Shown here: in pieces, positions 19,302-45,570 of the stretch
How the letters are laid out: each line of letters opens with the position of its first letter
Position numbering within the stretch: the first letter of the stretch is position 1
Assembly (NCBI GenBank): GCA_029262005.1
Contig: JAJDAG010000017.1
Location: 13,473-77,472, forward strand
Direction of reading: 5' to 3'
DNA: 64,000 bases
From: Candidatus Zhuqueibacterota bacterium
GTDB taxonomy: Bacteria > Zhuqueibacterota > Zhuqueibacteria > Oceanimicrobiales > Oceanimicrobiaceae
Notes under the pieces: model-generated
Seen by the model: only the letters and a program-made list of their open reading frames with translations
Databases searched by the model: none
What the model was told of the DNA's origin: nothing
Program-made: the position numbers and the translations under genes

Positions 19302-19355
19302 TATAGTAATTTTATGTTACAACACAAGTGGAAAGGTGTGGATTTACGTTGACTG

Positions 19356-21080
19356 TCACTTTACTTTAATAAGAAGGGCGGTGATGTCGTCTGCTTGTGG
19401 GCACCCACTCGAAAAGCTTGCCACGTCGTCTAACAATTTCTTCAGCAGGTCCTTCGTGGATAGATGAAAATTATCAGCAATACACTTTTCGATTCGATGC
19501 TCTTCATATTCTTCTTCGTTCACATTCATTGCCTCAGAGACGCCATCTGTGAACATCACAATACAATCTCCGGAAGCAAGTTTGACAGTTTCGGACTTGT
19601 AGATAATTTCCGGCATCATCCCAAGAATCAACCCACCTTCATCGAAGGTCTCAAATGTGCCATCTGCGTGATAAAGATATGGCGGGTTATGTCCGGCATT
19701 CACTGAAGTGAAACTACGCTTCTTCAAGTTTAGAATGCCAACAAAAAAGGTAATAAACTTGTCATAAGTTGTGTTTTCGTATATTATCTTATTGATACGT
19801 GTGGTGATTTCTGTGAGCGACAGGCCTGTATCTGCAAGTGCATGCAGACTTGCTTGCACGTTTGCCATGAGCAAAGACGCAGGTGTACCCTTTCCTGAAA
19901 CATCTGCGATGCAGAACATATACTCGTCGTTTGACATTTTGATAAAATCAAAGTAATCTCCCCCTACCTGCCGTGATGGATTATTCACGGCCTCCACCTC
20001 GTACCCCTCCAGAGTCAGGCAGCTATCCGGTAATAATTGTCTTTGGATTTCACCGGCGATACGCATTTCTTCATCCATAGCTTTCTTTTGCAGTTCCTGC
20101 TCAATCAGCCGTGCTGTTTCAATTGAAATGACCGACCAATCACCCAGGATAGAAAGAAACCTCAGTTCATCCTTTGAAAAAGGCTGCCTGGTTATCTTGC
20201 CACCTATTGCAATGACGCCTTTGTTTTCATTCTCAATTTTCATTGGAATAAGTGCCGCAATGCCTGCCGCAGTAAACGCATCACATGTTGAACCATCTTG
20301 ATAATCTTGAATCAAAATAGGCTCTTTCAGGCTTGCGAGTTCAGTCGAAATCTGATTATTGCCGGTAATTTGGCTACAATTGTCAGAGGGAATTCCCTTA
20401 TTAAGCGACAAAGTCATGCCTTCGCTGGCAGCAAGAAACACAGCACAGCGATTCACCATCATTTCACCCATGATCGAATAGACAAGCAGACTAACAACTT
20501 TATTCGTTTCTAACTTCGAAAGCGTTGAATTTAGCTCCCGGACAATCTCAGACAAAGTATTGAGTTCCTGCACACTTTTGTCCGACTTACGCTTCTCATG
20601 GTCAAGCTGGCGAAAAATTAAACCATTTTGAATGGAAGTAGCTGAGATGTTTGCAAGTGAATTTAAATAATCTAACTCCGTGTCGGAAAACTCACCTGCA
20701 AGACTCTTTTTGCCAAGACCGATAAGGCCCAGGTTTTTGCTGTTGTGGCGAACCGGAACCACGACGAGTATGTCATTTTTTTTTAGAAATGCCTTAATCG
20801 TTGACGGTTGCATGTCGGCAGTAAAAGTGAGACTGAGAGGGAAATCGTCAATATGTACCACACTGTCCAGAAACGAACGAGGTAACCCTTTGCAGGCCTC
20901 GATTATGTATTTTTCCTGCTGGTGCCCAACAAGGACAAGACCTTTGCTAATCAAAAATTTGCCCATTAATGTCAGAAGCAGAGTATCCAGAATACTCTTC
21001 AAGTCAAGCGAAGAATTCAACGCCTTGCTCAAGTCGAAGATAGCCTGGAGCTCGTATTTTGTTTCCGGGTCTTGATTCAC
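19356..21080 (-). CDS. GAF-domain sensor fused to PP2C/SpoIIE serine phosphatase
   Basis: Two N-terminal GAF-like domains, then PP2C motifs (ADVSGKGTPASLLMANVQ, MFTDGVSEA). Confidence 0.75.
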   Translation of the reverse strand: MNQDPETKYELQAIFDLSKALNSSLDLKSILDTLLLTLMGKFLISKGLVLVGHQQEKYIIEACKGLPRSFLDSVVHIDDFPLSLTFTADMQPSTIKAFLKKNDILVVVPVRHNSKNLGLIGLGKKSLAGEFSDTELDYLNSLANISATSIQNGLIFRQLDHEKRKSDKSVQELNTLSEIVRELNSTLSKLETNKVVSLLVYSIMGEMMVNRCAVFLAASEGMTLSLNKGIPSDNCSQITGNNQISTELASLKEPILIQDYQDGSTCDAFTAAGIAALIPMKIENENKGVIAIGGKITRQPFSKDELRFLSILGDWSVISIETARLIEQELQKKAMDEEMRIAGEIQRQLLPDSCLTLEGYEVEAVNNPSRQVGGDYFDFIKMSNDEYMFCIADVSGKGTPASLLMANVQASLHALADTGLSLTEITTRINKIIYENTTYDKFITFFVGILNLKKRSFTSVNAGHNPPYLYHADGTFETFDEGGLILGMMPEIIYKSETVKLASGDCIVMFTDGVSEAMNVNEEEYEEHRIEKCIADNFHLSTKDLLKKLLDDVASFSSGCPQADDITALLIKVK

Positions 21081-21129
21081 TTGTATTAAATTTATTGGTT
21101 TGAGGCTGGTGCCTGGGACAAAAAAATGG

Positions 21130-21582
21130 TTATGTGAGATATTTTATCATTCGCACCTGATTTTTCAAGCCAGGTTTTATTTCGAAGTCAACTTTGTCCA
21201 TGAGTGTTTTCATTAGACAAATGCCGAGGCCACCTTTCTTCCCCGCCCTTATTGATTCACTTAAGTCAGGGGTCTTTACACGCGATGGGTTAAACCCTTT
21301 GCCTTTGTCAGAGACAATGATAACCAACTTATTCTTCTCAACCTTGATTAGAATATCCAGCATTTGGCCCTGGGAATTACCATAAGCGTGTTTAATGACA
21401 TTTGTGCAGGCTTCATCAACAGCAAGCTCGATCTTGCTGGCTTCATCCGCATCAAGGCCCACTTGCGCAGCGACTTTGGTCACCAGCCCCCTAATTATTG
21501 ACAAATTGCCAGCTTGGCTTGGTAACTTTAATTGATACTTTTTCTGAGTTTTAGGCAAAGTATTCACCGGCTTTGTAAGCAT
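21130..21582 (-). CDS. RsbW/SpoIIAB-like anti-sigma factor serine kinase (GHKL ATPase)
   Basis: 150 aa. N-box ELAVDEACTNVIKHAY; G-boxes DKGKGF and GGLGICLM. Confidence 0.75.
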   Translation of the reverse strand: MLTKPVNTLPKTQKKYQLKLPSQAGNLSIIRGLVTKVAAQVGLDADEASKIELAVDEACTNVIKHAYGNSQGQMLDILIKVEKNKLVIIVSDKGKGFNPSRVKTPDLSESIRAGKKGGLGICLMKTLMDKVDFEIKPGLKNQVRMIKYLT

Positions 21583-27092: not shown

Positions 27093-27617
27093 CTAATCGG
27101 AATCCAAATAAACTTTCAGTTCATCCGGTATTATTTCTTCAATTGTCACCTGGCTTTCCGCATGCATATTGTAGGCTTGCACAAGTTCTTTTAACCTTGA
27201 GGCACAGCTGCGCAATTTAAGGTTGTCATCTGCCGAAGTGACAAGACGGCGAATTTCTATCAGCGTGTTACCGATTTTCTCAAAATAGTAATTTGACAGC
27301 GACTGGTCAATTAAATTCTTTACCGAATCCTTGACAACTGTCTCTTTCTTTTTTAGGGTATTCAGAGTATTTTTCAAATGAAACTGGTTGAGTTCCTTCA
27401 CCAGGTTGCTGTCAATGCCGACGTAATTGAGCATTGCCGGGTGTTTTTTGTAGTACTCTGTTTTTACAGCAATGTTGGTGAGAAGGTACTGCTCCACCAC
27501 AACTCGTTCCCCGAAGGAGAGTATCCTGTGCGAGAAATAGTGGATGGAATTTGCTTCTTCTTTGTATGAAACCTGAATCATCAGGTCTGAAGAGGAGAAA
27601 TAGAGCAATTCTTTCAT
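27093..27617 (-). CDS. Hypothetical protein (174 aa, no recognised domain)
   Basis: Clean ORF between the OMP-TPR gene and lon with a codon bias like its neighbours. No motif recognised. Confidence 0.4.
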   Translation of the reverse strand: MKELLYFSSSDLMIQVSYKEEANSIHYFSHRILSFGERVVVEQYLLTNIAVKTEYYKKHPAMLNYVGIDSNLVKELNQFHLKNTLNTLKKKETVVKDSVKNLIDQSLSNYYFEKIGNTLIEIRRLVTSADDNLKLRSCASRLKELVQAYNMHAESQVTIEEIIPDELKVYLDSD

Positions 27618-27828: not shown

Positions 27829-30321
27829 TTATGATTCAACTTCCTGCAAAGCCAATCTTACCACATCATCAACATCTTTAATGAAGTTAACCTCCATATC
27901 GTTGACAATTGTATCAGGTACGTCCTCATAATCAGCGCGATTTTTCTCGGGTAGCAATACTCGTCTTATGCCGGCACGATGAGCGGCCAAAACTTTTTCC
28001 TTGATACCGCCAACCGGTAAAACCAAACCTCTTAATGTGATCTCCCCCGTCATCGCCAGATCATTTCGAACAAGCTTGCCGGTCAGCAAAGAAACAAGGG
28101 CTGTAAACAAAGTAACGCCGGCCGATGGCCCATCTTTTGGAATTGCTCCGGCTGGGACATGGATATGAATATCGGTTTTTGGAAAGATTTCATCGGAAAT
28201 ATTCAACGTAGCTGCCTTCGACCGAATGTAGCTCAAGGCAGCTTTGGCAGATTCTTTCATAATATCTCCCAAAGAGCCGGTTAAAATAAGTTCGCCCGTA
28301 CCAGGCATTTTTGTGGCTTCGACAAATAGAATGTCGCCACCCGCAGCGGTCCACGCCAACCCGGTAGCAACGCCGGAACGTGAAGTCCGCTCTGCGACTT
28401 CAGAAATGAATTTTTGAGCGCCCAGGTAGTCGGAAATCCTGGCAGTCGTGAGCTGGGTTCCACCCTTCTTGCCTTCAACAATTTCACGCGCTACACCGCG
28501 GCAAATTGAGGCTATCTCCCGCTCCAGGTTTCGTACGCCGGCTTCTTTTGTGTACGATTGGATAATCTCTGTAATGGCATCATTTTTGAAATCAATTTGG
28601 TCTTCGCTTAATCCGTGTTCTTTAAGCTGTTTCGGGATTAGATACCGAGTCGCAATGTGAAGTTTTTCATGTTCTGTGTACCCTGGAAGTTCAATAATTT
28701 CCATTCGATCTCTTAGAGCTGGAATGATCGGATCGGCCAGATTGGCCGTTGCGATAAACATAACGCTCGACAGGTCGAAAGGCACTTCAAGGTAGTGATC
28801 TGAAAAGTCAAAGTTCTGCTCCGGATCCAACACTTCGAGGAGAGCAGAAGACGGATCGCCACGAAAGTCCTGACCAATTTTGTCAATTTCATCCAACATG
28901 AATACCGGATTATTCGAACCGACTTTTTTCACGCCTTGAATAATCCTTCCGGGCAAGGCGCCAATATAGGTTCTGCGATGACCGCGAACTTCTGCTTCGT
29001 CACGCACACCGCCGAGAGACATTCTGGCAAATTTACGGCCAAGCGCCCGGGCAATCGATTTTCCCAATGATGTTTTTCCTACTCCCGGAGGGCCAACGAA
29101 ACAAAGAATAGGACCTTTCATGTCCGATTTGAGTTTGCGCACGGCCAAATACTCTAACATGCGTTTTTTGACCTTTTCAAGATCATAGTGGTCTTCATCG
29201 AGAATTTTGCTGGCCGCCTCGACGTCGAGGCTATCGACTGTGGCTTTGGCCCAGGGCAACTCAACCAGCCAGTCAATATAAGTTCTGGACACAGTGTATT
29301 CCGCCGCTGCCGGTGGCATCTTTGCCAAACGGTCGAGTTCCTTTAAAGCGACCTTGTTTGCCTCATCAGGCATCTTTGCCGCCTTAATCTTTTTTCGCAG
29401 CTCGTTGATTTCCACCGCATGCTCATCTTCGGCTTCGCCAAGTTCTTTCCTAATCGCTTTTAATTGTTCTCGGAGGTAGTATTCTCGTTGCGTTTTATTT
29501 ATTTCTCCCTGAACTTCCAATTGAATTTTGCTGCCCAGCTCAAGAATTTGCAGCTCTCGCGTCAGGATATAATTAAGCCGTTCCAACCGGTTCTTAACAT
29601 CAGCAAATTCCAGAATAGATTGCTTGTCAGAAGTGGCAACATTAAGGTTCCATATGATAATGTCAGCCAGCCGCGCTGGCGACTCTGTATTCTGAACAAG
29701 CATCACATGCTCAGGGGTTAAATAAGGAGCAAGTCCAACAATTTTCTCAAATAGCGTCCGGACGTTACCTACCAGTGCATCAATATCCACAGTGTCTGCG
29801 GTGACTTCTTCTTGCGTCTGCACAAGACCTTTGAAGAATGGTTGCGACTGCGTATAGTCAATTATTTTGGCCCGCCCAATGCCCTGGACCATCACACTCT
29901 GGGTACCATCCGGCATTTTGAAGACCTTCATAATTGAGGCGATGGTACCATCCTTATATAAGTCTTCGGGTTCAGGATCCTCAACCTTGCCATCTTTTTG
30001 AGCGACGAGGGTCAGCAGCTTGGTATCAGCCAGGGCATCCTCAATGAGTTTGATGGATCGTTCTCTGCCAACAGAAATCGGTATAATCTGCTGTGGAAAT
30101 ACCACGGTGTTTCTAAGGGGGAGAATTGGTAAAACCTGGGGGATATTAAAATCGACGGAGTGGTTGTCTTTTATTTCCTCCACCCCCCCTGTTACTTCAG
30201 GGGTGCCGTCTGTGAGTTCAGATAATGCGAAGCGTTCGATCTTCATGAAATAAACCTGCTTGGTTAATGACAAAAAGGCAGTCTTTTTGAATTTCTGGTA
30301 ATTTAGCAAGTTTTGTTCCAA
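27829..30321 (-). CDS. lon: ATP-dependent Lon protease (endopeptidase La). The likely true start is the MKIERF Met near 30246.
   Basis: LON N-domain ([26 protein letters not shown]), AAA+ Walker [16 protein letters not shown], Walker B FMLDEIDK, protease Ser-Lys dyad ([19 protein letters not shown]...K). Confidence 0.9.
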
Positions 30322-30447: not shown

Positions 30448-31326
30448 CTAGTGTGCGCCTCCCGAAAGGACATCGCCCAGCATTGAGGCGCAGGCCACGA
30501 GCATGCTCTGGTCATCTTCGTGAAAAACATCTGCCAGGTCGCTGTCGATGTCAATTTCTCCAATAATGGTATTACCAGTAAAGATTGGTACGACTATCTC
30601 GGATTTAGTTTCAATGCTGCAGGCAAGGTAGCGTGGGTCTGCCTTAACGTCAGGAATGAGAATGGATTTGCCCTCGGTAACGGCTGCACCACAAATACCC
30701 GTTCCTAACGGAATTCGTGCATGCGGGGTAGGACGACCCAGGAAATTATGCAGCACCAGCTCGTTTTCCTCAAGAAGGTAAATTCCGACCCAGGTGTATT
30801 TGGGCTGCCTTGCCTTTAGTAATTGCACAACCTGCCGCAGACAGGTGTCCACAGTTTTGGCGCTGGTTGCGCACTGCCCTATTTGTTTTACCGTACCCTG
30901 ACCGACAAGGTACTCTATTCCGCGCAAATACCCGATGGCCCCCATACCGATATAACGCTTGCAGCAAACCGTTTCAACAACCGAAATGTGCCGAAACGGC
31001 TCCCTTTCCAAGACATTTGAAAGATGAACTTCTACGGTTGGCAATTGAATGGCCGAAAGTGCATCACGCAGAGAATAACTGTAGTGCGTTAAAGCTGCCG
31101 GATTTATGACAATACCATTTGCCCAATTGCGGTTCTCATGCAAAAAATCGAGGATTTCACCTTCATGATTTGACTGAAAGCACTTCAGTTCAACTTTTAG
31201 TTCCTTTGCACAATGTTTGATTTTTTCATTAAGTTGATCCAGAGTCATGCTACCGTAGATCTCTGTCTCTCTTTCACCCAAAAGATTCATATTTGGGCCA
31301 TGAACAATGAGGTACTTTTCAATCAA
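30448..31326 (-). CDS. aroQ: 3-dehydroquinate dehydratase type II (AroQ, residues 1-145) fused in-frame to a GAF domain resembling free methionine-(R)-sulfoxide reductase (fRMsr/YebR)
   Basis: N-terminal half is LIVHGPNMNLLGERETEIYG...FQSNHEGEILDFLH...VINPAALTHYSYSLRDAL...VEVHLSNVLEREPFRHISV. C-terminal half WVGIYLLEENELVLHNFLGRPTPHARIPLGTGICGAAVTEGKSILIPDVKADPRYLACSIETKSEIVVPI...IGEIDIDS matches the fRMsr GAF signature, including the GxCG active-site Cys. Confidence 0.8.
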   Translation of the reverse strand: MIEKYLIVHGPNMNLLGERETEIYGSMTLDQLNEKIKHCAKELKVELKCFQSNHEGEILDFLHENRNWANGIVINPAALTHYSYSLRDALSAIQLPTVEVHLSNVLEREPFRHISVVETVCCKRYIGMGAIGYLRGIEYLVGQGTVKQIGQCATSAKTVDTCLRQVVQLLKARQPKYTWVGIYLLEENELVLHNFLGRPTPHARIPLGTGICGAAVTEGKSILIPDVKADPRYLACSIETKSEIVVPIFTGNTIIGEIDIDSDLADVFHEDDQSMLVACASMLGDVLSGGAH

Positions 31327-31879
31327 GTTTCGTCAACTCCTTTAATACTTTTGTTACGACCGATTCAGGTGTTGCCCCAACCTGACAATTACATATTATA
31401 TCAGCTCGCTCATAAAAACTGCTGCGTGCACGGAAAAGTTTTTCCAGACACGCTCGCTGTTTATGCGTTGGTTTTGAGGTTACTAAAGGGCGTTTCGCAT
31501 CGTTAAAGATACGGTTAAGCAAAACTTCAATAGGCCAGCGGAGGTAAACCACAATTCCACAGGTTGAGACAATTTCCCTATTCCCGGCAGCAATGGTTGC
31601 CCCGCCGCCAAGTGCGATAATATGGTTATCGAATTTTGCGGTCTTTGATACAGCCGCCATTTCCAGTTTCCGAAAACCGGGCTCACCCTTTTGCTTAAAG
31701 ATTTGACCAATTGAGCAGCCTGCCTCCTGCTCAATGAACGTGTCAAGATCCAGAAAGTGCCAATCCATTTTTTGGGCAAGGAGTGGGCCAACAGTGGATT
31801 TACCGGCCCCCATGAAGCCAGTCAAATAAACAAGTGGTTTATTTGACTGACTGACGTTTCCAGGCATCATGGCGCTCAC
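31319..31879 (-). CDS. aroK: Shikimate kinase
   Basis: Walker A YLTGFMGAGKSTVG, LID/shikimate-binding region, 186 aa. 8-nt overlap with aroQ. The 5' end overlaps the aroC 3' end; the true start may be an internal Met. Confidence 0.8.
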   Translation of the reverse strand: MSAMMPGNVSQSNKPLVYLTGFMGAGKSTVGPLLAQKMDWHFLDLDTFIEQEAGCSIGQIFKQKGEPGFRKLEMAAVSKTAKFDNHIIALGGGATIAAGNREIVSTCGIVVYLRWPIEVLLNRIFNDAKRPLVTSKPTHKQRACLEKLFRARSSFYERADIICNCQVGATPESVVTKVLKELTKLD

Positions 31880-33032
31880 GTATTTCTTCTATAGAATCGC
31901 CACCAAACTTTTCGAGAAAGGCGTCAGCGAGTACCAGACAAAGAACCGACTCGCCGATCACAGAAGCAGCAGGCACAGCACAGACATCGCTGCGTTCAAT
32001 GTGAGCGACAGTGGCCTTTTTCGTTTCCATGTTCACGGAATCGAGCGGATTCATCAGGGTTGCAATGGGTTTCATTGCAACCCGAACAACCAGCGGCATA
32101 CCATTGCTGATGCCGCCCTCCAGGCCGCCTGCATGATTTCGTGATCGAAAATACTGGGCTTCTGAATCATCATAATAAATCGCGTCGTGCACTTTTGAGC
32201 CTGTGAGGGTGCCAGACACAAAACCAATACCGATTTCCACCCCTTTCATCCCTGGAATGCTCATCATCGCACCGCCAATGCGGCCATCCAGTTTTCGATC
32301 CCAGTGTACATGGCTGCCAAGCCCAATCGGCAGGCCGAATGCCACAACTTCAAAAACACCGCCGAGCGTATCCTTTTGCGCCTTTGCCGTATCGATTGCG
32401 GCTATCATTTTTCGTTCAATCTCTTTGTTCAAGCAACGCACACTGGACTCATCCGCCAGGGCGCTCATTTGTTCAAGTGGAAATTCAGGCGTATCGTTTG
32501 AGCCCAGATGGGCAACAGAAAAATCACTTTGTGCTTTGTGGATTTGCACAACATGGCTGACTACAACAATGCCAAATTCAGTAAGAAATTTACGCGCAAC
32601 TGCACCGAGTGCAACCCGCATGGCTGTCTCCCGGGCACTTGCACGTTCAAGGATGCTGCGAATGTCTTTGTGGCCATATTTGATGGAACCAGCAAAGTCC
32701 GCATGTCCGGGCCTGGGAATACGAACTTGTTGAATATCAACATCGACTTTACCAATCGACATCTTGGTTTCCCAATTCTTCCAATCTTTATTTTCGATTA
32801 ACATGGAAATGGGACTGCCAAGGGTTTTTCCGAAACGAATACCGGAGAAAATTCGCGCAAAGTCCTTTTCTATTCTCATGCGCCCACCTCTGCCGTGCCC
32901 CATTTGCCGGCGCTGCAAATCCAGAAAAATATCTTCTTCAGAGATTTCAAGGCCGGCCGGCACGCCCTCCAGTATGCCAATCAAGCCCGGGCCATGCGAT
33001 TCTCCGGCTGTGTAATATCTGAATTTATTCAT
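31839..33032 (-). CDS. aroC: Chorismate synthase
   Basis: MNKFRYYTAGESHGPGLIGILEGVPAGL N-terminus and the conserved GRSSARETAMRVA-like and GGISNGMP motifs. Confidence 0.9.
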   Translation of the reverse strand: MNKFRYYTAGESHGPGLIGILEGVPAGLEISEEDIFLDLQRRQMGHGRGGRMRIEKDFARIFSGIRFGKTLGSPISMLIENKDWKNWETKMSIGKVDVDIQQVRIPRPGHADFAGSIKYGHKDIRSILERASARETAMRVALGAVARKFLTEFGIVVVSHVVQIHKAQSDFSVAHLGSNDTPEFPLEQMSALADESSVRCLNKEIERKMIAAIDTAKAQKDTLGGVFEVVAFGLPIGLGSHVHWDRKLDGRIGGAMMSIPGMKGVEIGIGFVSGTLTGSKVHDAIYYDDSEAQYFRSRNHAGGLEGGISNGMPLVVRVAMKPIATLMNPLDSVNMETKKATVAHIERSDVCAVPAASVIGESVLCLVLADAFLEKFGGDSIEEIRERHDAWKRQSVK

Positions 33033-33885
33033 AGCTCGCCAATTTCTCTAACAAAAGATTTCTCAAAACTTCAAGGTCAAATATTGCAGCTCTTCCCAGC
33101 CATATTTCAAACGCCGCAACACCTTGAAAAATAAACATATTTAAACCATCAATTGTGCTCGCCCCTGCTGATTTCCCCTGCGCTATAAATTGGGTTTCCA
33201 AAGGGTTGTAAACAAGATCTACAACAATAGCCTCTGCCGGCAGTGCCGGTAGAACAAAAGGTGTCTTGTCAATGTCGGGCCACATTCCAACAGAAGTGGT
33301 GTTCACTATGAGGGCGCGCTCTGAAATATGCGAAGCAATCTTTTCGATGTTCCAATCGCAAACTGAAATGGCGGTTTCCGGAAAAAACCGACCCATGCTC
33401 ACGGCAAGATTCCGGGCACGTTCCAGCGTGCGGTTGGCAATGGTAATTTCAGAAATACCCTCTGCCAGCAACCCGTAAATGACAGCTCTTGATGCGCCAC
33501 CTGCCCCTAATACAATGGCAGACCGCTGTTTTATTTCGATGCCTGAATGTTGCAATGAACGCATGAATCCGCTCGAGTCGGTATTGTGGCCATGTAGCCT
33601 GTTATCGTGCACAAGCACCGTGTTTACAGCGCCAATTGTTTTGGCCGCATTGCTTATGTCAGTAAGAAATGGTAGAATTTCCTGCTTTAGAGGAATTGTA
33701 ACATTGAATCCTCGTATGCCGGAGTTAAGCAAATCACTTACTCGCTCTGCAAGGTTGCTTGGTTGTGTCTCAAAGCTTCGGTAGCTGCCCTCCTGCCCGT
33801 TCTGCTGAAGCAGGTATGTGTGCAGCACCGGTGATAGCGAATGCCGTATTGGGCAGCCAATAATACCCAAATGCAAATGGCTCAC
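33025..33885 (-). CDS. aroE: Shikimate dehydrogenase
   Basis: LGIIGCPIRHSLSPVLHTYLL N-terminus, NVTIPLKQEIL, Rossmann motif GAGGASRAVIYGL. Confidence 0.85.
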   Translation of the reverse strand: MSHLHLGIIGCPIRHSLSPVLHTYLLQQNGQEGSYRSFETQPSNLAERVSDLLNSGIRGFNVTIPLKQEILPFLTDISNAAKTIGAVNTVLVHDNRLHGHNTDSSGFMRSLQHSGIEIKQRSAIVLGAGGASRAVIYGLLAEGISEITIANRTLERARNLAVSMGRFFPETAISVCDWNIEKIASHISERALIVNTTSVGMWPDIDKTPFVLPALPAEAIVVDLVYNPLETQFIAQGKSAGASTIDGLNMFIFQGVAAFEIWLGRAAIFDLEVLRNLLLEKLASYE

Positions 33886-35168
33886 GATACAGTAGCCAAC
33901 CTCCGTAAAGTGCTAAAAAAGTCAGGGTGGCTGATGTCAGTACATTCACTGCCTTTGATTCGGGTTTCACCATCAGCAATGAGACCGGCGACTGCAAAGG
34001 CCATAGCGATTCGGTGGTCGCCAAAGCATTCAATGTCTGCTGCCCGTAAGGGTGTGGGGCCTTCTATGATGAGGCCGTCTTCCGTCTCTACTACTTTCGC
34101 TCCCATTCTGTCCAGATTAAATTTCAAGCTGCGCAAACGGTCAGACTCTTTGTGCCTGAGCTCACCGGCACCACTAATTTCCGTAACGCCATCGGCTTGA
34201 GTGGCTAAAATGGAGAGTATCGGGATTTCATCAATGATTTGTGGAACAATGTCTCCACCGAGCGTCATGCCTTGCAGTTTAGAGTTTTTAATAAACAAGT
34301 CTGCCATCATTTCATTTTCAACAGTCCGAACATTGATGATGTCGAGCTCAGCGCCAATTTCTCCCAGCACGGACAACAATGTCCTGCGAGTGGGGTTAAT
34401 GCCGACATTCTTGAGTAAAACACCGCCATCTTTGGCCAACATGGCTGCGCCAATAAAAAACGCAGCTGATGAAATGTCGCCAGGCACAAAAACATCGCGC
34501 GCGGTTAGCCTGGCATCCCCTTCAACGGAAACGGTGAGGCCGTTACGTTGCACATTGGCGCCAAATTTGGATAACATAAGCTCAGTGTGATCCCTCGTCA
34601 CAGCGGGTTCTATGACTTCTGTATTCCCGGGTGCGTACAATCCGGCCAGCAAAATGCATGACTTCACTTGAGCGCTTGGAAGCGGCAGCGCGTATGAAAC
34701 CGAGTGCAGAGAACCGCCCTCAATTGTCAGCGGAACAAACTCGCCCTTTGCAGCCGTGACTTCTGCACCCATCTTCCGCAGAGGCATAATGATTCGTGAC
34801 ATTGGCCGCCGGTGAATGGACTCGTCACCGGTAATTCGGCTAACAAATGTTTGTCCCGCTAATATGCCCGAAAGCAGCCTGATGGTGGTTCCTGAATTTC
34901 CCACATCTAACGTGTGATCCGGCACCTGCAGGCCAGACAATCCTGCCCCGTCTACTACGGTATGCTCTCCCTCCCTAATAATCTGCACCCCAAGATTCCG
35001 AAGGCAGGCAATGGTGCTTTTAACATCTGCTCCTTCACAGAGATTTTCGATGTGTGTTTCACCCTCGGCAATGGCCGAAATCATTAATGCCCGATGTGAT
35101 ATTGACTTGTCCCCGGGAATGACCACCTCTCCCTCGATTCTTTGCGCCGGTGTAATCAGTTCTTGCAT
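33882..35168 (-). CDS. aroA: 3-phosphoshikimate 1-carboxyvinyltransferase (EPSP synthase)
   Basis: 428 aa. IPGDKSISHRALM, LDVGNSGTTIRLL, DHRIAMAFAVAGL motifs. Confidence 0.9.
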   Translation of the reverse strand: MQELITPAQRIEGEVVIPGDKSISHRALMISAIAEGETHIENLCEGADVKSTIACLRNLGVQIIREGEHTVVDGAGLSGLQVPDHTLDVGNSGTTIRLLSGILAGQTFVSRITGDESIHRRPMSRIIMPLRKMGAEVTAAKGEFVPLTIEGGSLHSVSYALPLPSAQVKSCILLAGLYAPGNTEVIEPAVTRDHTELMLSKFGANVQRNGLTVSVEGDARLTARDVFVPGDISSAAFFIGAAMLAKDGGVLLKNVGINPTRRTLLSVLGEIGAELDIINVRTVENEMMADLFIKNSKLQGMTLGGDIVPQIIDEIPILSILATQADGVTEISGAGELRHKESDRLRSLKFNLDRMGAKVVETEDGLIIEGPTPLRAADIECFGDHRIAMAFAVAGLIADGETRIKGSECTDISHPDFFSTLRRLATVS

Positions 35169-35546
35169 TGTGCCTCATCTATTTATTTTGACGTGAAAAC
35201 CTACCTGTTGTAATAATGCCGCAGCGGAAAAGTGGTCGCACCCAACCTCGAAAGCACAACCTGATTGTGCCGACAACGTCTCCTCTCACTTTAATAACTT
35301 CCATGTCTTTATGCTTATATTTTTCTCTGCCAAACATGAACAATACGATTAAACTTCAAAATAACATATCTTTTACGATTTGTCAAAATTAAATATACAG
35401 GTTTAAAGTTGCAAGCAAAATCACCACGTTTTGCCAACTGCTTTTGCTATCAAGGCCAGCTCAGACATCAATTGTGTAAACTGTTTAAGAGAGTCTTATC
35501 AACTTACGATAAAACAAAGCAATTCTTCAAGAGGAGAAATTATTAA

Positions 35547-36267: not shown

Positions 36268-37812
36268 TCAATGAACCCACGCAGGTAGAGAAGTAGTCGA
36301 AATTTCAAATAATGGGATGACCACAAAATAGGTCAAGAGGGTTACTAATACAATCCCTAATAAATTAAGCAGTATTCCGGTCTTGGCCATCTGCGATATT
36401 GAGACGTAGCCGGAGGCAAAAATAATGGCGTTCGGGGGAGTTGCAACAGGAAGCATGAACGCACATGAAGCGGAAATTGTCGCCGGTATCATCAACAAAA
36501 GAGGATTTATTCCTATGCCCGCAGCTGTGCTGGCAAGTATAGGCATGAAGAGACTGGTTGTTGCAACGTTAGAGGTCAACTCGGTTGTGAAAGTCATTGT
36601 AGTACACGTTATCAAGATCATTACTGGCAGCGGTACACTTCCTAACAAAGATAGTTGCGTACCGACCCACTCAGCCAAACCGCTGCTCTTGAATCCGCCC
36701 GCTAGCGCAATTCCACCACCAAACAAAATCAAGATTCCCCATGGAATTTTGAGCGCAGATTCCCAATCGAGCAAAAATTTACCCCTTTTCAAATTAGCAG
36801 GAATACAGAATAATATGATGGCAGCCAGCATGGCAACCGTGCCATCGTGCAAGAAATCGGAGGCACCAAGCATTGAGGACCATCCTTTCAACGTGGTAAA
36901 TCCGATGGTCACATCCTTTCTCGTGATCCAGGCAAGCGCTGTCGCCGCAAACACAGCAGCCACGAGCTTTTCTTCAATTAACATCGGGCCAAGCTTATTA
37001 AGTTCTTCACGAATCACCTGTCTGCCCCCAGGAAGATTTTTATTACTTACCCTGAACGCAATCCTGGTCAGAACAATCCAGCATATCGGCAAGAAAAACA
37101 GGAGCAAAAGAGACCCGATTAAAATCCAGGTAAAAAAACTAATTTCCGGTGCTTCAGGATAGAGTTTTGAAAAGGCACTAACGAAAACGATATTGGGGGG
37201 CGTGCCGACAAGAGTTGAGATGCCGCCTATACTGGCCGCGTAAGCAATGCCAAGCATAAGCGCAGTTCTGAAATTTAATATGCTGTCGTCGGAAGCTGCG
37301 CCCTCGCCAGGCTGCCCTTCCATTAAGTGAAGAATTACCGCCAGACCAATCGGGTACAGCATCATGGTTGTAGCGGTATTTGATATCCACATGGACAAGA
37401 AAGCCGTTGCCACCATAAAACCAAGAATGATACGCCGTGGGCTTGTACCGATTACCCATATGAGATAAAGCGCAATCCGGCGATGCAATCCCCACTTTTG
37501 CATGGCGATTGCAATAAAAAATCCTCCCATAAAAAGAAATACGTTGCTGTTGGCGTAACTCGCCGCCACATCTCCAAAGCCGACCACACCAAAGAAAGGA
37601 AATAAGATTAAAGGCAAAAGAGCCGTCACAGGAATCGGAATGGATTCCGTCATCCAGAGAATAGCCATGATTGCCGCGATGGCAAAAACCCGCCAACCTT
37701 CAGCTGATAAGCCGGCAGGTGCAGGCATCATCAGCAAAATGACGAAAAGCGGCAAAGTGATAACAAAACCGATTAGTTGACGCTTTGAATAGTTTTCAGA
37801 TTTGTTCGGCAT
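36268..37812 (-). CDS. DASS-family (SLC13-like) sodium-coupled di/tricarboxylate or sulfate symporter
   Basis: 514 aa polytopic membrane protein. Duplicated hairpin-loop motifs (TPPNAIIFASG, TLVGTPPNIV) typical of the divalent anion:Na+ symporter family. Confidence 0.8.
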   Translation of the reverse strand: MPNKSENYSKRQLIGFVITLPLFVILLMMPAPAGLSAEGWRVFAIAAIMAILWMTESIPIPVTALLPLILFPFFGVVGFGDVAASYANSNVFLFMGGFFIAIAMQKWGLHRRIALYLIWVIGTSPRRIILGFMVATAFLSMWISNTATTMMLYPIGLAVILHLMEGQPGEGAASDDSILNFRTALMLGIAYAASIGGISTLVGTPPNIVFVSAFSKLYPEAPEISFFTWILIGSLLLLFFLPICWIVLTRIAFRVSNKNLPGGRQVIREELNKLGPMLIEEKLVAAVFAATALAWITRKDVTIGFTTLKGWSSMLGASDFLHDGTVAMLAAIILFCIPANLKRGKFLLDWESALKIPWGILILFGGGIALAGGFKSSGLAEWVGTQLSLLGSVPLPVMILITCTTMTFTTELTSNVATTSLFMPILASTAAGIGINPLLLMIPATISASCAFMLPVATPPNAIIFASGYVSISQMAKTGILLNLLGIVLVTLLTYFVVIPLFEISTTSLPAWVH

Positions 37813-37925
37813 AGATCAGTTATGCTTTGGATGAATAATGCAGGAGATAAAAGTGTCGGGTAGATTCGATTTTACTATGGTTAGTTGTTGAAACATGCGG
37901 ACTTAAAGTTTAATGTTTAGAAGTA

Positions 37926-38672
37926 TCAAAATCCCGAGTAACTTCCTTCAAGTTCAGACGCGGCAGCCTTGTCAATCACAACAGTCGCAAATTCATGGAG
38001 TTGTACAATTGTCGCAGGATACTTTGCCATTACAGGACCCTCAACTGTAGCTTTTATTGCATCCGCTTTTGCAGCACCACTGGCCAATAAGAGGAGCTCA
38101 TGAGCCTGCATTATTGTGCCCACCCCCATGGTAATGGCATACGTGGGCACCTCGTCCATATTTTCAAAAAAACGAGCATTGTCCTCGCAGGTTTGAGCGC
38201 TAAGAGTTTTTATACGTGTTCTAGAGCCCAAAGAAGACCCTGGCTCATTAAAAGCGATATGGCCGTTTGCGCCAATTCCCAGAATTTGTAAATCGATACC
38301 ACCACATTCTTCAATTTTTTCTTCATACCATAAACAAAATTCGTCAATATTTTCCGCCATTCCCATTGGAACGTGAACATGTCGCGGATCTACATTGATA
38401 TGCTTAAATAAATTCTCCCACATGAAATAGTGATAGCTTTGTTCATGCGAGGGCGGCAGCCCAACATACTCGTCCAGGTTAAACGTAATGACTTTCGAAA
38501 AATCCAGCCCCTCCTCTTTGTGCAACCGAATCAACTCTTTATACATACCCAAAGGCGTACTGCCCGTTGCAAATCCGAGGACACAATCCGGTTTTCTACG
38601 GACCAAACTTGCAAATAGTTTTGCCGCGTCTTTGCTCATTTCTTCAAAATTCTCTTTTATAACAACCAACAT
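37926..38672 (-). CDS. nagB: Glucosamine-6-phosphate deaminase
   Basis: 248 aa with LGFATGSTPLGMY, FNLDEYVGLP and GIGANGHIAFNEPGSS motifs. The start ATG directly abuts the stop of the upstream 879-aa gene (TAAATG). Confidence 0.9.
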   Translation of the reverse strand: MLVVIKENFEEMSKDAAKLFASLVRRKPDCVLGFATGSTPLGMYKELIRLHKEEGLDFSKVITFNLDEYVGLPPSHEQSYHYFMWENLFKHINVDPRHVHVPMGMAENIDEFCLWYEEKIEECGGIDLQILGIGANGHIAFNEPGSSLGSRTRIKTLSAQTCEDNARFFENMDEVPTYAITMGVGTIMQAHELLLLASGAAKADAIKATVEGPVMAKYPATIVQLHEFATVVIDKAAASELEGSYSGF

Positions 38673-41312
38673 TTACTTCTTCGGATATCCTTCTTTTTCC
38701 AGCCAATATAGTAAATATGGGACATTATAAGCATGTGTCCAGCCGAAAACCCTTGAGCCGCCGTTAAGAGTCCAGTTAGGGCGCCTGTCCGGTGTCAATT
38801 CATTCGGGGGCATATGATCCACACTTTCAAGGGCATTAAATAATTCAAGTTGGGTGTGTGTGCCATCAAAGAGATTTGAATCGGAAAGTTTGTCTGTTTT
38901 CAAAAAACCGGCCCTTTTAACAGCTTCGCGATACAGGCTTGGTTCTCCAGAAAATTTATATCCAATTAACAAACTGTGAATAGTCGATAAAAACGATTCC
39001 ATTCCGTGATTTCTAGGTGGAACATCACGTACCCAGCGTGCATGACGTACAAGAGCTGGTTGAATCCTGTTGTCCTCTGTGATCTGGAAATATTTTCGTA
39101 ACCCATGTGATACATAGACCTGTGCATACCCGTAGCGATCCAGCACAAGACTGCCGCCCTGCGGCTGTTGCAAGCGCAACATTGTGTTCACCCGATCTTT
39201 TAACTCTTTAAAATAGCGCTCGTCCTTGGTCGCGTCATATATCTCCGCCAAGTTCCAGACAGACAGGTACAGGCGCCTTCCTCTCAAATCATGCTCACCC
39301 CAAATGCGCTTAATGTAGGTATCTGCGGTTAATTTCGCGACTTCTAAACCACGGTGATATCCACTTAGATAGTAAGAGGCGACCCAGCCCATATTCCAGA
39401 CGTGTGCGCTATATAACGTCCCCCAATGCTGCCTGCCCTCACGGGCGCCCATTCCAAGATATGGATTGCCCTGAGGTTTATCCTTCTCTTTCCAAAAGTC
39501 GAGTGCATAGTTAGAATCACCGGCATATTCAGGGTCGGCTGGCCAGTGAATATTGTCTACATCCATACTGTGACGGCTTGCCGCCTCCGCTGAAAGGTAG
39601 ATGTTACGATCGCCGGTTCGCATAAAGTGCAGCCAGCGCATGTAATCCTGACCCGGTTCGTTATTATTCCATAAAAACCAATCCATTTTGAAGTAATATG
39701 TTTGCCTGTCTCCATAGTCAAACATGCCGTACCAAGGTTCCCAATTCTCGTTGAAAATCATCCACTTGAACTTGTAATCTAATCCCCGCTCAAATTCAGG
39801 AAATTTCTTTGAAGCAGGTGCAAATGAACCGTATACATCACTCTTCGCATACCATTCCGGTGCTGTATGTGCGATAGGCGGATCGAGAAAATAGCGCATT
39901 TTGTTCTCAAGCTCGGCGTGACTCTTACCGGCTTTGTGAAAGTTATAAACCAACTCTGTCGTCTTTGTTAAACCTTGGGCAAAATTACTGACCATACCGC
40001 CGTCCAATTCACTGGAAAGACGGGCAAAACTCATGGGGTCAGCCTCGGGAGACCAGGAAAAAGCAGTCACTTCTTTTCCAGCCACATCAAGGTTGATTTC
40101 CTTTGGGTATTCTTCAAAAAAATGCCGCATTCCAACGCTGATTCCCCAACGCCGGTCCGAAATATCCAACCAACCATCGGCTTTGGAGGATTCCACCAAG
40201 GTTTCAGAATCGGAGGCAATCTTCGCGAAAAAACCGTCAATTCTCTTTTCCGGCGTAGAATTCGGGACGGGGGGCATACGCGTCGGTTTTGGACCGGACT
40301 GTAAAATAGACACCACTTCTTGCGAGGTAACTGCGGTTTCGAAGAACTGTCTTTCTCCCGGCTGCCACCATTCCCCTTTGCGATAAGCAGTCACATAATT
40401 CAGGTCTCCAGACAATTTGTAGTCTAGAGAAATGCCTGCTGCTGCTATTCTATCATTTGGCTGTGCCCAGCCAGCATCGCTGACCAAACTCTTTTCATCA
40501 ACGATTTTTTCAGCCTGAGTGGCAATCAAAGCATGTTCACCTTCAAAAGGTTTGTGCTTGTCGGGTTCCCCCGTGTATGTAAGTGTATGAAGCACACGAA
40601 CATAAGATTTTCCGGCATAGGCGTGTACTCTCATGATAAATGGAGAGGGATTATTATCATCCCGTGAATATTGATATTCACCTTCCGCTTTGATTATCAT
40701 GTGCAGGGGACCAGAGCCCTTCTCAATCCAATTTCTTTTGATCACCGCCTTGGATTTGTCAAGTCCGAGATCGTCAAGAATATCGAGAAATGAACCCCGC
40801 CCTTCCGGCCCCTCAGCTATCACGTCATTTTCATCAAATCCATCTCCGGCCCCATCCAGTTCCACTTTGTCCAAAAAGCCGTTACCGTTTTTATTTATTC
40901 GGAAACGAAGTGGGCCGGTGGATATCGTAATAAAACCCCGTGCGCGTTGGTTATTGTTTACTAGAATCCTCTCGCTTGGTATCGGGGCGCGAACAACGGT
41001 TTTGCCATACTCAAGGAAATAGTTGCCTGAATTCTCGCAAAAAAAGAACACCCAAATCCATTTAATGCTTTCATCAGCGGGCATCCACGTGGTGACTTCG
41101 GTGATTTGAGAAGGGATTTCCTTACCTTTGGCATTTAAAACGCGTACATGGTCGGGCGAATGCAATACACCTTTCGGAAAGGGGACTCCCAGCGTCAAGG
41201 GTGCCCCTTCAATAGGCTGATTCACCTTCAAAGGAAGCCTTGACTGAGCCAGTGAGGATCCAAAAAGTGCAAGCAACGAGATTATTGCAATTATTCCGGT
41301 AATTTTTTTCAC
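38673..41312 (-). CDS. Secreted 879-aa protein of unassigned family. Candidate glycan-active enzyme (possible (alpha/alpha)6-barrel hydrolase/lyase) of the amino-sugar PUL.
   Basis: Signal peptide MKKITGIIAIISLLALFGSSLAQS. N-terminal beta-rich region and a C-terminal Trp/Tyr-rich region (HWGTLYSAHVWNMGWVASYYLSGYH, DYMRWLHFMRTGD) reminiscent of alpha/alpha-toroid glycosidases. No GH18, GH20 or GH2 signature. Translationally coupled to nagB. Confidence 0.5.
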   Translation of the reverse strand: MKKITGIIAIISLLALFGSSLAQSRLPLKVNQPIEGAPLTLGVPFPKGVLHSPDHVRVLNAKGKEIPSQITEVTTWMPADESIKWIWVFFFCENSGNYFLEYGKTVVRAPIPSERILVNNNQRARGFITISTGPLRFRINKNGNGFLDKVELDGAGDGFDENDVIAEGPEGRGSFLDILDDLGLDKSKAVIKRNWIEKGSGPLHMIIKAEGEYQYSRDDNNPSPFIMRVHAYAGKSYVRVLHTLTYTGEPDKHKPFEGEHALIATQAEKIVDEKSLVSDAGWAQPNDRIAAAGISLDYKLSGDLNYVTAYRKGEWWQPGERQFFETAVTSQEVVSILQSGPKPTRMPPVPNSTPEKRIDGFFAKIASDSETLVESSKADGWLDISDRRWGISVGMRHFFEEYPKEINLDVAGKEVTAFSWSPEADPMSFARLSSELDGGMVSNFAQGLTKTTELVYNFHKAGKSHAELENKMRYFLDPPIAHTAPEWYAKSDVYGSFAPASKKFPEFERGLDYKFKWMIFNENWEPWYGMFDYGDRQTYYFKMDWFLWNNNEPGQDYMRWLHFMRTGDRNIYLSAEAASRHSMDVDNIHWPADPEYAGDSNYALDFWKEKDKPQGNPYLGMGAREGRQHWGTLYSAHVWNMGWVASYYLSGYHRGLEVAKLTADTYIKRIWGEHDLRGRRLYLSVWNLAEIYDATKDERYFKELKDRVNTMLRLQQPQGGSLVLDRYGYAQVYVSHGLRKYFQITEDNRIQPALVRHARWVRDVPPRNHGMESFLSTIHSLLIGYKFSGEPSLYREAVKRAGFLKTDKLSDSNLFDGTHTQLELFNALESVDHMPPNELTPDRRPNWTLNGGSRVFGWTHAYNVPYLLYWLEKEGYPKK

Positions 41313-41371
41313 GCCGGGAAACCTCCTAAGTTAGATGTCATCTCTATTGCGCTAAAGCAAACCAGTCAGTT

Positions 41372-42229
41372 CTATTCTTTGTGACCATCGTAATAAAGTG
41401 CAGCGGCTCCTAATATCGCTATGTGTTCAAGTTCAGAGACCTCAATCTGCAGAGACTTAATTGAATTTGGATATGCAAAGGATTGTATTGACGCCCACAA
41501 AGCGTCCTTGAAAAACCGAAAGGCCTTTCGAACTGAGCCGCCAAATATAATTATCTCAGGGTCGTATGCATAAAGAATCGTTTTAATACCTTCCCCTAAA
41601 TGCCGTCCGAACTCTGCCCACGCTTTCAAAGCTTCTTCTTCATCTCGCACTGCTCGCTGAAAAAACTCCTTGCTTGTTTGCTTAAAATTCCTGGTGAAGA
41701 ACTGACCGCAACAGTAGTGCTCATAAATACTGTCCCTATAAGGCATCATGCCGAATTCTCCGGCGCCACAATTTATCCCCGCATAGGACTTGCCGTTGAC
41801 GATGACGCCGCCGCCGAACCCAGTTCCCAGGATAAGTCCAATTAGCGATTCATACTCTACACCCTTGCCGAAATATTTTTCACCGAGTGCAAAGCAATTC
41901 GCATCGTTATTCACAAACGTAGGAGTAGAATACTTTTCTTCCAATATGGACTTAATAGGCACTTTCTTCCAGGACGGTATATTCTGAACATCATAAACGA
42001 TGCCGTTTTTAATATCCACCACACTGGGGACACCAATGCCAATACCATCGAGGTTTTCAGGCTTGCTCTTATCTATTAATGCGCAAATCTGATCCAAAAC
42101 TTCATCCTCTGAACCTTTTGGATTTATTTTCACTGAGGACACCTCACCGAGCTGTTGATTGCGCACCAGGCCGACACGAACGTTAGTACCTCCTAAATCA
42201 ATTCCTAATATATTTTGCTCCTGCATCAC
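41372..42229 (-). CDS. ROK/BadF-type sugar kinase (putative GlcN/GlcNAc kinase)
   Basis: N-terminal ATPase motif ILGIDLGGTNVRVGLV and GTGFGGGVIVNG. Lacks the canonical ROK Cys-rich zinc motif. Confidence 0.65.
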   Translation of the reverse strand: MMQEQNILGIDLGGTNVRVGLVRNQQLGEVSSVKINPKGSEDEVLDQICALIDKSKPENLDGIGIGVPSVVDIKNGIVYDVQNIPSWKKVPIKSILEEKYSTPTFVNNDANCFALGEKYFGKGVEYESLIGLILGTGFGGGVIVNGKSYAGINCGAGEFGMMPYRDSIYEHYCCGQFFTRNFKQTSKEFFQRAVRDEEEALKAWAEFGRHLGEGIKTILYAYDPEIIIFGGSVRKAFRFFKDALWASIQSFAYPNSIKSLQIEVSELEHIAILGAAALYYDGHKE

Positions 42230-42307
42230 TGACTATCCCACAGATGAATATTCTTCTAAGAAATGTTTAAAATCGGCCTTTTGGCAATCGCGAGGCATTT
42301 TAGTATA

Positions 42308-43627: not shown

Positions 43628-43648
43628 GTTTGTCCATCGTTTTGGAAT

Positions 43649-44557
43649 TTACTTCAACATGGGGAATAACCTCTTGATTTCTTCGTCACTGGGCTGCTTA
43701 CCGTACTCGCATATTTCAAATGCTTCGGCATATTTTACATCAGTGGCTTTGTGAGTTCCGTACCATTTTTCAAGCGAGTCCCGGAGTTCAGGTGAGATAG
43801 AGGAACCCTGGTAGACCCCGAACACCTCCTTTAACCATTTCTTGCGGTCGGCAGCGCCTTCAGGTACTTCATCCGCTCTTCCCACTGTCCATGGCATCCA
43901 TTCATAAAACTGGGAAACGTGCGCATCCAGGCCAGCCATCTTTTTATCAACGGTTTTGTCGATAGCTACTGCTATGTCGGGTCGAAATGGATTCGGCCGC
44001 TGGAAACGATCGCTGAAATAAAGAAAAATCGGATTTTTTTTCAACGGCGGTGTATCCGGCGTGACATTCGGCACGATTACCAGATAGGCGGCATCCTGGA
44101 CCAACTCGCCCGTATAACGGTGGTCCGGATGGTAGTCATTCGGACGAGGAGAAAGCACAACGTCAGCATTCCACTTCCGGATTTCCCGTATGATCTGATG
44201 CCTGACTTTCAGACTGGGTACCAACTCAGCATCATGATTGTCTAAAGTAACATATTCGTCGATGCCTAAACGATGGGCGGATTCTTGGGCTTCGGCACGT
44301 CTGCGCCTGGCGAGGGCGCCACCGCCTTCTGTTTGGTGTCCGGCATCCCCATTGGTGACAGACACAAACTTCACCGCGTGCCCCATTTCGGCAAAAAGGG
44401 CGGCGGTGCCGCCAAACTTTGCATCGCAGTCGTCCGGGTGAGCTCCAATAGCTATGATTCGAAGCTTCCCACCATCCGTACCCGAACTTTGTGCGAATGA
44501 TAAAATGGTACTTAAAAGTATTGATGTAAGAACTAATAACTGCTTCATGGTATGCAC
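43649..44557 (-). CDS. PIG-L/LmbE-family N-acetylglucosaminyl deacetylase with signal peptide (periplasmic)
   Basis: Signal peptide MHTMKQLLVLTSILLSTILSFAQS. Zinc-binding motif IIAIGAHPDDCDAKFGGT and HPDH downstream. Confidence 0.75.
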   Translation of the reverse strand: MHTMKQLLVLTSILLSTILSFAQSSGTDGGKLRIIAIGAHPDDCDAKFGGTAALFAEMGHAVKFVSVTNGDAGHQTEGGGALARRRRAEAQESAHRLGIDEYVTLDNHDAELVPSLKVRHQIIREIRKWNADVVLSPRPNDYHPDHRYTGELVQDAAYLVIVPNVTPDTPPLKKNPIFLYFSDRFQRPNPFRPDIAVAIDKTVDKKMAGLDAHVSQFYEWMPWTVGRADEVPEGAADRKKWLKEVFGVYQGSSISPELRDSLEKWYGTHKATDVKYAEAFEICEYGKQPSDEEIKRLFPMLK

Positions 44558-44581
44558 TCTCCCACGTGTACAAAATAAAAA

Positions 44582-45556: not shown

Positions 45557-45570
45557 AAAATCCGCGTTCT

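Follow-up and report, generated by a model that had tools for sequence, protein, structure and literature searches.

What does the last gene of the shikimate-pathway operon encode in a 64,000-nt stretch of Candidatus Zhuqueibacterota DNA (assembly GCA_029262005.1, contig JAJDAG010000017.1, positions 13,473 to 77,472), and why should its aroQ frame run on, without a stop codon, into a GAF domain resembling a methionine-sulfoxide reductase? In this stretch, referred to below as the window, aroA, aroE, aroC, aroK and aroQ lie on one strand with neighbouring genes overlapping by 4-41 nt, and the fused gene, designated here aroQ::GAF, closes the series. The fusion is real, it is conserved, and it is the operon's type II dehydroquinase (DHQase) gene. 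Its product is most readily interpreted as a bifunctional enzyme, a DHQase joined to a type II free methionine-(R)-sulfoxide reductase (fRMsr), because two complete active sites are strictly conserved; this reading, in which both activities are predicted from sequence, is assigned a probability of about 0.6.

The gene call was examined using the open reading frame (ORF), the Pfam matches and the gene layout, all of which agreed with a first-pass annotation, made from the sequence alone, that had proposed an in-frame AroQ-GAF fusion as the closing gene of an operon of overlapping aroA, aroE, aroC and aroK, with lon as the next gene. The start codon of the fusion ORF overlaps the aroK stop by 8 nt, and the identity of lon was established by Pfam and by comparison with deposited Lon sequences. 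A 292-aa protein of identical sequence (P0001) and a Lon that is 100% identical over 805 aa (P0371) were found in the database on a 96-kb contig from NCBI, so that the gene call of the deposited annotation agrees with the one made here. The longest possible ORF for lon, of 830 aa, would begin at a TTG at 30321; the Lon in the database and all homologues begin at the ATG at 30246, so that the intergenic region between aroQ::GAF and lon is 201 nt long. No conserved motif was detected in this region in an alignment of seven loci, scans for terminators and promoters gave background level only, and Rfam and tRNA scans of the 64-kb window revealed no non-coding RNA.

Conservation was assessed in the relatives of the fusion, defined as the best 120 database matches to the full protein and drawn from NCBI, JGI, ENA and Logan assemblies. 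All 120 were 272-295 aa in length and 53-63% identical to the window protein, and all carried both PF01220 and the GAF families. The gene order aroC-aroK-aroQ::GAF-lon was present in each of six related loci taken from long contigs, and in four of these the genes upstream were trpB, trpA, a chorismate mutase gene, the gene for 3-deoxy-D-arabino-heptulosonate 7-phosphate (DAHP) synthase, tyrA, aroA and aroE. That an error in sequencing or assembly had erased a stop codon or frameshift separating two genes in the source contig was an a priori possibility only, and its probability is now close to nil, as the same continuous architecture was found in 120/120 top relatives from independent assemblies and in the six loci inspected directly, with a connector that could be aligned and was constant in length. 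With the same unbroken frame present in over 120 relatives from independent assemblies, an artefact of assembly or stop loss confined to this contig is excluded. Purifying selection on both active sites is strict, and the two cysteines of the GAF domain, on whose conservation in orthologues the first-pass annotation had made its proposal depend, were invariant in all 120.

The lineage of the fusion was assigned using the source names of homologous proteins. Named fusion relatives and the closest Lon homologues (up to 79% identity) came from Calditrichaeota/Calditrichota, candidate division KSB1 and Caldithrix sp., and the SusC/SusD proteins and proteins with a type IX secretion system tail found elsewhere in the window fit a bacterium of the Fibrobacteres-Chlorobi-Bacteroidetes group. 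Metagenome-assembled genomes with the fusion include GCA_029261995.1, GCA_037446635.1, GCA_029262055.1 and GCA_046757165.1. The fusion is not in every genome labelled KSB1: one such locus (L001) carries an aroQ of 151 aa followed by pheA. A scan of genome contigs with the family alignment returned stand-alone AroQ genes, and the fusion was present in 0 of 80 loci among the matches listed.

For the N-terminal half, the first-pass annotation had claimed a complete type II dehydroquinase, and this was upheld by domain, family, residue and fold comparisons. Pfam DHquinase_II (PF01220) was matched by residues 5-140 (E 4e-53, 179 bits against a cut-off of 23.3) over profile positions 2-137 of 138, and the NCBIfam equivalog aroQ TIGR01088 was passed with 177.9 bits against a cut-off of 169.85. 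This half matched the Bacillus subtilis DHQase (PDB 1GQO) with E 2e-41. The flavodoxin-like DHQ2 fold was recovered by Foldseek against many DHQ2 structures, with a root-mean-square deviation of 0.8-1.7 Å and target-normalised template modelling (TM) scores of 0.89-0.96. In the Corynebacterium glutamicum enzyme CgDHQD, substitution by alanine of N12, R19, Y24, N75, E99, H101, R108, H81 or R112 abolishes activity (PMC10772564), and Asp88' of the neighbouring subunit is also needed for DHQase activity (PMC6011038). The residues N12, R19, Y24, N75, H81, D88, E99, H101, R108 and R112 are all present in the fusion protein, where their numbering is identical to that of the characterised DHQases, and are invariant in 119-120 of the 120 relatives. 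DHQ2 forms a tetrahedral dodecamer of four trimers in the solved homologues (PMC10772564). Every family feature tested was found, and the AroQ half is confirmed as a complete type II 3-dehydroquinate dehydratase with predicted activity.

The C-terminal half was matched by Pfam GAF at residues 160-284 (E 1e-12) and by GAF_2 (1e-8), the two families together covering approximately residues 156-287. When the C-terminal 150 aa were compared against the PDB, the best matches were fRMsr structures, namely Ta0848 from Thermoplasma (4MMN, 2e-29), the enzymes of Staphylococcus aureus (3KSF, 1e-25) and Neisseria meningitidis (3MMH, 3e-19), Escherichia coli YebR (1VHM, 4e-19) and the yeast protein (1F5M, 7e-15). 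GAF domains that bind cyclic nucleotides were weak matches only (1e-5 to 1e-3; the PDE2A GAF 7e-5 to 1e-3), far below the fRMsr matches. Target-normalised Foldseek TM scores of the GAF half against fRMsr structures were 0.87-0.90; in the PDB search no solved chain spanned both halves, and DHQ2 and fRMsr structures were matched separately. The linker of VirA, which senses phenols and has been modelled on fRMsr, was also considered; at 12% identity it is a remote analogy and was not taken as evidence.

The nearest characterised relative is Ta0848 (TafRMsr), with 44% identity across 122 ungapped residues, and this alignment places Cys84, Cys60 and His50 of TafRMsr at Cys236, Cys212 and His202 of the fusion protein, with KYLAC of the former corresponding to RYLAC. 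His202 takes the place of an additional cysteine of the S. aureus enzyme (Cys68) and, by spacing, corresponds to yeast Cys91. Residue roles for fRMsrs were drawn from reviews and a preprint, the latter giving Trp66, Tyr70, Glu132, Asp149 and Asp151 (yeast numbering) as substrate-binding or catalytic residues (bioRxiv 10.1101/2021.02.26.433065). By spacing and by the Ta0848 alignment these map to W179, Y183, E243, D259 and D261, which are, together with H202, C212 and C236, invariant in the 120 relatives. TafRMsr reduces free Met-R-O via the thioredoxin system with Cys84 as the nucleophile, and its Cys60 is essential, yet forms no disulfide with Cys84, so that recycling by an external thiol has been proposed (PMC6211008). 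Ta0848 was named a 'type II' fRMsr by its depositors (PDB 4MMN/4MN7). The features of that type were all found in the fusion protein (C212 and C236 present, no further cysteine owing to H202, and a YLAC motif); those of type I were absent, as H202 replaces the cysteine located ~34 residues upstream of the catalytic one and the motif reads RYLACS, not H[I/V]xCD. Membership of the GAF half in the fRMsr family and in its type II subclass is confirmed at the level of sequence, with reductase activity predicted, and by homology Cys236 would be the nucleophile and Cys212 the second essential cysteine.

These results bear on three statements of the first-pass annotation. Its match to the fRMsr family across the whole GAF domain was borne out by the PDB searches, the alignment and the fold comparison. 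Its likeness to YebR/MsrC held for the family and failed for the subclass, the domain being of the Thermoplasma-like type II with His202. The cysteine of the GxCG motif (Cys212), which it had called catalytic, was mislabelled; by homology the nucleophile is the YLAC cysteine Cys236, equivalent to TafRMsr Cys84 and yeast Cys125.

The two halves are joined by a connector that had originally been taken for a linker of ~30 aa and proved to be ~17 residues long (143-159) and predicted helical. In the 120-sequence alignment, its mean pairwise identity was 19%, versus 64% for AroQ and 67% for GAF, and its length was 17 in 108 of the 120 relatives. A stand-alone homologue of 149 aa from a Terriglobia metagenome-assembled genome aligns from about residue 155 onwards, so that some of what had been counted as linker belongs to the fRMsr fold as its first helix. 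An AlphaFold2 (AF2) model, generated with an alignment of 32 sequences, had a predicted local distance difference test (pLDDT) score of 93.2 and a predicted TM (pTM) score of 0.90. In this model the C-terminal helix of AroQ continues into the connector as a single helix (131-155), which is followed after a short break by a helix at 159-173. The model suggests that the connection between AroQ and GAF is stiff.

A second group of AroQ-GAF proteins was recovered when 1.84 billion representatives were searched exhaustively; the 150 best matches contained the representative of the window protein's own family (P0123, family A) and one further AroQ-GAF cluster (P0127, family B). Family B comprises at least 44 clusters at 90% identity, one of them labelled Myxococcaceae, with proteins of ~300 aa that are 37-44% identical to the window protein. 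It has the same domain order as family A, with a connector longer by ~9 residues, and shares its position at the operon end: in both loci available (L087 8001-8906, L088 8001-8906) the fusion terminates an operon of the order DAHP synthase-aroA-aroE-aroC::aroK-aroB-aroQ::GAF. This operon has aroC and aroK joined as well, and no lon neighbour. The AroQ residues of family B are all intact. In its GAF domain, C212 is replaced by Thr in 41/44, C236 by Thr or Met in 42/44, and D261 by Glu; W179, Y183, H202, E243, D259 and S262 are kept. Judged by these residues, the family B GAF domain is a thiol-less pseudo-reductase with its pocket retained. Crude neighbour-joining trees were built for each half. 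The AroQ halves of families A and B were not exclusive sisters, the family B GAF domains lay on a long branch, and those of family A were mixed with stand-alone type II fRMsr-like proteins; for the two families these trees do not separate one fusion event from two.

Other matches with two aligned stretches were checked in a library of representatives at 50% identity and rejected as AroQ-GAF fusions, being mostly tandem AroQ-AroQ or GAF-GAF proteins. The proteins with AroQ in tandem, ~280-315 aa long and containing two DHquinase_II domains, formed several distinct clusters (P0124, P0132, P0166, P0170, P0176, P0179 and P0184), and in some of them the second copy looks degenerate in alignment. 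Further partners of the two modules were noted in the set P0252, P0261, P0180, P0169 and P0201, in which AroQ is fused to type I chorismate mutase, a GNAT acetyltransferase or an alpha/beta hydrolase, and the type II fRMsr-like GAF domain to Peripla_BP_2 or DHH/DHHA1. At one locus (L089 175-1564) Peripla_BP_2 and GAF have a gene each, the two genes overlapping, and an AhpC/thioredoxin-like gene comes next. Two stand-alone GAF relatives adjoin redoxin or AhpC/thioredoxin-like genes, which fits the need of a type II enzyme for an external thiol.

If the fusion protein is bifunctional, its AroQ half would convert 3-dehydroquinate to 3-dehydroshikimate by means of Tyr24, Arg19, His101 and Asp88', and its GAF half would bind methionine-(R)-sulfoxide in its free form (Met-R-SO) in the pocket formed by Trp179, Tyr183, Glu243, Asp259 and Asp261. 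Cys236 would attack the sulfoxide and be left as a sulfenic acid, which a thioredoxin-like external thiol would then reduce with the assistance of Cys212; an external thiol is expected because the position of His202 lacks a cysteine, as in TafRMsr. The connector, of fixed length and probably helical, may display the GAF domains at defined positions on the AroQ oligomer. Several points weigh against this reading or limit it. The geometry between the domains is that of a single-chain AF2 model. Both modules are fused to unrelated partners elsewhere, and some such fusions may be functionally neutral. No thioredoxin-like gene flanks the fusion. In the source genome the DAHP synthase and tyrA genes of the operon are relics, so that the physiological role of the remaining operon is uncertain, and whether the pathway still runs there depends on genes beyond the window.

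The first-pass annotation had suggested that the fusion might couple aromatic flux to oxidative repair, or that the GAF domain might be a sensor modulating the DHQase. The retention of a cysteine-less GAF domain in family B lends indirect support to regulation of the DHQase, with the GAF domain acting mainly as a sensor whose ligand occupancy, or the oxidation of Cys236, would alter lid movement or assembly of AroQ through the connector. The ligand might be Met-R-SO or another amino-acid-like compound, shikimate flux might be throttled or boosted under oxidative stress, and any turnover by the reductase would chiefly return the switch to its starting state. A GAF domain without both cysteines cannot be a thiol reductase, yet in family B the pocket is kept on an intact operonic AroQ; the fixed length and predicted helicity of the connector and the pTM of the model are in keeping with signal transfer between the halves, and GAF domains are classic small-molecule sensors. 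For Thermus, a dedicated regulatory system is reported to control the expression of DHQase (PMC12907556). Against a mainly sensory role, the catalytic residues of the reductase are invariant in 120/120 relatives, for which selection for catalysis is the simplest account, no allosterically regulated type II DHQase was found in the literature searched, and an obvious feedback site already exists in these operons in the regulatory N-terminal domain of DAHP synthase. Regulation as the main purpose of the GAF domain is on balance unlikely.

At the other extreme, the fusion might be neutral, an fRMsr gene between aroQ and lon having lost the intervening stop and start so that two independent enzymes are simply co-expressed. 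The operon-end position beside a stress protease gene in 6/6 loci, the varied unrelated partners of both domains, the stand-alone aroQ in a KSB1 genome and the intermingling of family A GAF domains with stand-alone type II fRMsr-like proteins in the crude tree are all compatible with such an origin. However, no relative was found with adjacent yet separate aroQ and fRMsr genes, the length of the connector has been kept (17 in 108/120) despite the drift of its sequence, and the domain pair persists, after loss of the catalytic cysteines, in another lineage whose operon is laid out differently and has no lon beside it, all of which makes neutrality decidedly improbable. Since family B keeps its GAF domain after cysteine loss and the connector length is fixed, the pairing is probably not just neutral and probably has a value beyond co-expression, in sensing or assembly. 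A more far-reaching proposal, which can be offered only tentatively and appears doubtful at present, is that AroQ and GAF together form a functional unit, which two lineages either evolved or kept, and in which the GAF domain, carried on a rigid helix, controls the activity or higher-order assembly of the dodecameric DHQase. Within that proposal, and no less speculatively, the GAF domain would be an amino-acid or redox sensor, catalytic in Calditrichota/KSB1, a pseudoenzyme in the family labelled Myxococcaceae, and assumed to dimerise. Crystallised fRMsrs are dimers.

A probable methionine-sulfoxide reductase has been hidden in annotation across an uncultured lineage (Calditrichota/KSB1). Database names give type II 3-dehydroquinate dehydratase only, apart from a few family B fragments from JGI named 'putative methionine-R-sulfoxide reductase with GAF domain', and no description of a fusion of DHQase with GAF or fRMsr was found in full-text literature searches. 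Two well-understood modules are thus combined, across a lineage, in a manner not previously described, and a counterpart lacking the cysteines exists elsewhere. Should the reductase half be active, the poorly sampled type II fRMsr class, of which one archaeal member is characterised in the papers cited, would extend into bacteria. Should the pairing be functional, aromatic amino-acid synthesis would be linked to methionine oxidation, and the protein would be, to our knowledge, the first DHQase whose regulation or organisation depends on a domain that senses a ligand or redox state; were AroQ-GAF a functional unit as proposed above, it would constitute a post-translational control point, responsive to oxidative stress, in the middle of the shikimate pathway. 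The apparently rigid link of a dodecamer-forming domain to an expected dimeriser is also of interest for the study of natural protein assemblies. The claim can be tested directly with one recombinant protein.

The coordinates of the fusion gene, its parts and the features surrounding it are collected in Table 1.

Table 1. Position of the aroQ::GAF gene, its domains and key codons, and the neighbouring features in the window (position 1 is the first nucleotide of the window).
Feature	Position	Strand	Remarks
aroQ::GAF fusion ORF	30448..31326	(-)	unbroken frame of 292 aa from a TTG start to a TAG stop
Type II 3-dehydroquinate dehydratase domain	30901..31317	(-)	residues 4-142
Connector	30850..30900	(-)	residues 143-159, 17 residues; junction region
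fRMsr-type GAF domain, type II (TafRMsr-like)	30469..30849	(-)	residues 160-286
Cys236 codon (RYLACS), predicted catalytic nucleophile	30619..30621	(-)	aligned with TafRMsr Cys84, yeast Cys125
Cys212 codon (GICG), second essential cysteine by homology	30691..30693	(-)	aligned with TafRMsr Cys60, yeast Cys101
aroK, shikimate kinase	31319..31879	(-)	Pfam SKI 9e-45; directly upstream of the fusion, overlapping
aroC, chorismate synthase	31839..33032	(-)	Pfam 1.5e-120
aroE, shikimate dehydrogenase	33025..33885	(-)	Pfam Shikimate_dh_N 8e-28
aroA, 5-enolpyruvylshikimate-3-phosphate (EPSP) synthase	33882..35168	(-)	Pfam 1.4e-119; first intact operon gene in the source genome
lon	27829..30246	(-)	Pfam; 805 aa from ATG at 30246; next gene downstream of the fusion
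DAHP synthase relic, last 21 codons	35424-35486	(-)	57-67% identical to four relatives
tyrA C-terminal ACT-region fragment	35187-35342	(-)	relic just upstream of aroA
trpE ORF (190 aa) and adjacent intact trpG	53578-54150 and 53025-53597	(-)	
Polysaccharide-utilisation-like island, ~17 kb	36268-52515	(-)	between trpG and the aro-operon relics

The five remaining aro genes are intact in the window. The rest of DAHP synthase and tyrA, as well as chorismate mutase, trpA and trpB, which lie upstream of aroA in relatives, are absent from the 64-kb window, as are trpD, trpC and trpF. The trpE ORF matches residues 4-126 and 425-476 of a 491-aa TrpE, ~300 residues of the chorismate-binding domain having been deleted internally. 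This pattern suggests that the tryptophan branch is decaying at this locus. The island apparently replaced the genes that relatives hold there (trpD...tyrA); it encodes an extracytoplasmic function (ECF) sigma factor, a FecR anti-sigma factor, a SusC-like TonB receptor, SusD, two PIG-L deacetylases, a major facilitator superfamily (MFS) transporter, a ROK kinase, a PcRGLX-like protein, a NagB-like isomerase and a DASS symporter of the Na/sulfate type.

On the other side of the fusion, a 174-aa protein without Pfam match (27093-27617, minus strand) is encoded directly downstream of lon and is 68% identical to its counterpart in one related locus (L081). An unannotated ORF of 128-188 aa occupies this post-lon position in four of the six related loci (L081, L082, L084 and L085), and it is followed by a conserved outer-membrane protein (OMP) barrel/TPR protein and then by a response-regulator-PAS-GAF protein. 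A signalling cluster of the partner-switching type was also noted at 18120-21582 (minus strand), comprising a response-regulator-SpoIIE phosphatase, a GAF-SpoIIE phosphatase and an anti-sigma-like kinase with HATPase_c_2; in relatives a STAS protein adjoins the HATPase_c_2 gene.

When compared with known systems, the AroQ half shares its fold, its residues and their numbering with the stand-alone AroQ/DHQ2 enzymes of B. subtilis (1GQO), C. glutamicum (8IDR) and Mycobacterium tuberculosis. Those proteins are ~140-170 aa long and end soon past the last helix, whereas in the fusion protein, whose gene sits in the shikimate operon, that helix runs on into a 150-aa extension. The extension has the GAF fold of TafRMsr (TM 0.87-0.88, target-normalised), its cysteine pattern, its YLAC motif and its Trp/Tyr/Glu/Asp/Asp pocket; TafRMsr, however, is a free-standing archaeal protein of ~149 aa, and the domain described here is the C-terminal half of a bacterial shikimate enzyme, with a predicted rather than a measured activity. 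With the type I fRMsrs (E. coli YebR/MsrC, the S. aureus and N. meningitidis enzymes and yeast Ykl069w), the extension has in common the family, the fold, the catalytic and GxCG cysteines and the pocket. These enzymes differ in having a further cysteine (yeast Cys91/S. aureus Cys68) and the motif H[I/V]xCD in place of His202 and RYLACS, and recycling in the fusion protein would probably proceed via an external thiol instead of the intramolecular disulfide of type I. Precedents for joined Msr modules or for joined consecutive aro enzymes are provided by MsrA-MsrB fusions, fungal Aro1/AROM, AroQ-chorismate mutase and aroC::aroK. Each of these unites parts of one pathway or one repair function, whereas AroQ::GAF joins a biosynthetic dehydratase to what is probably a redox-repair or salvage enzyme, the two having no substrate in common.

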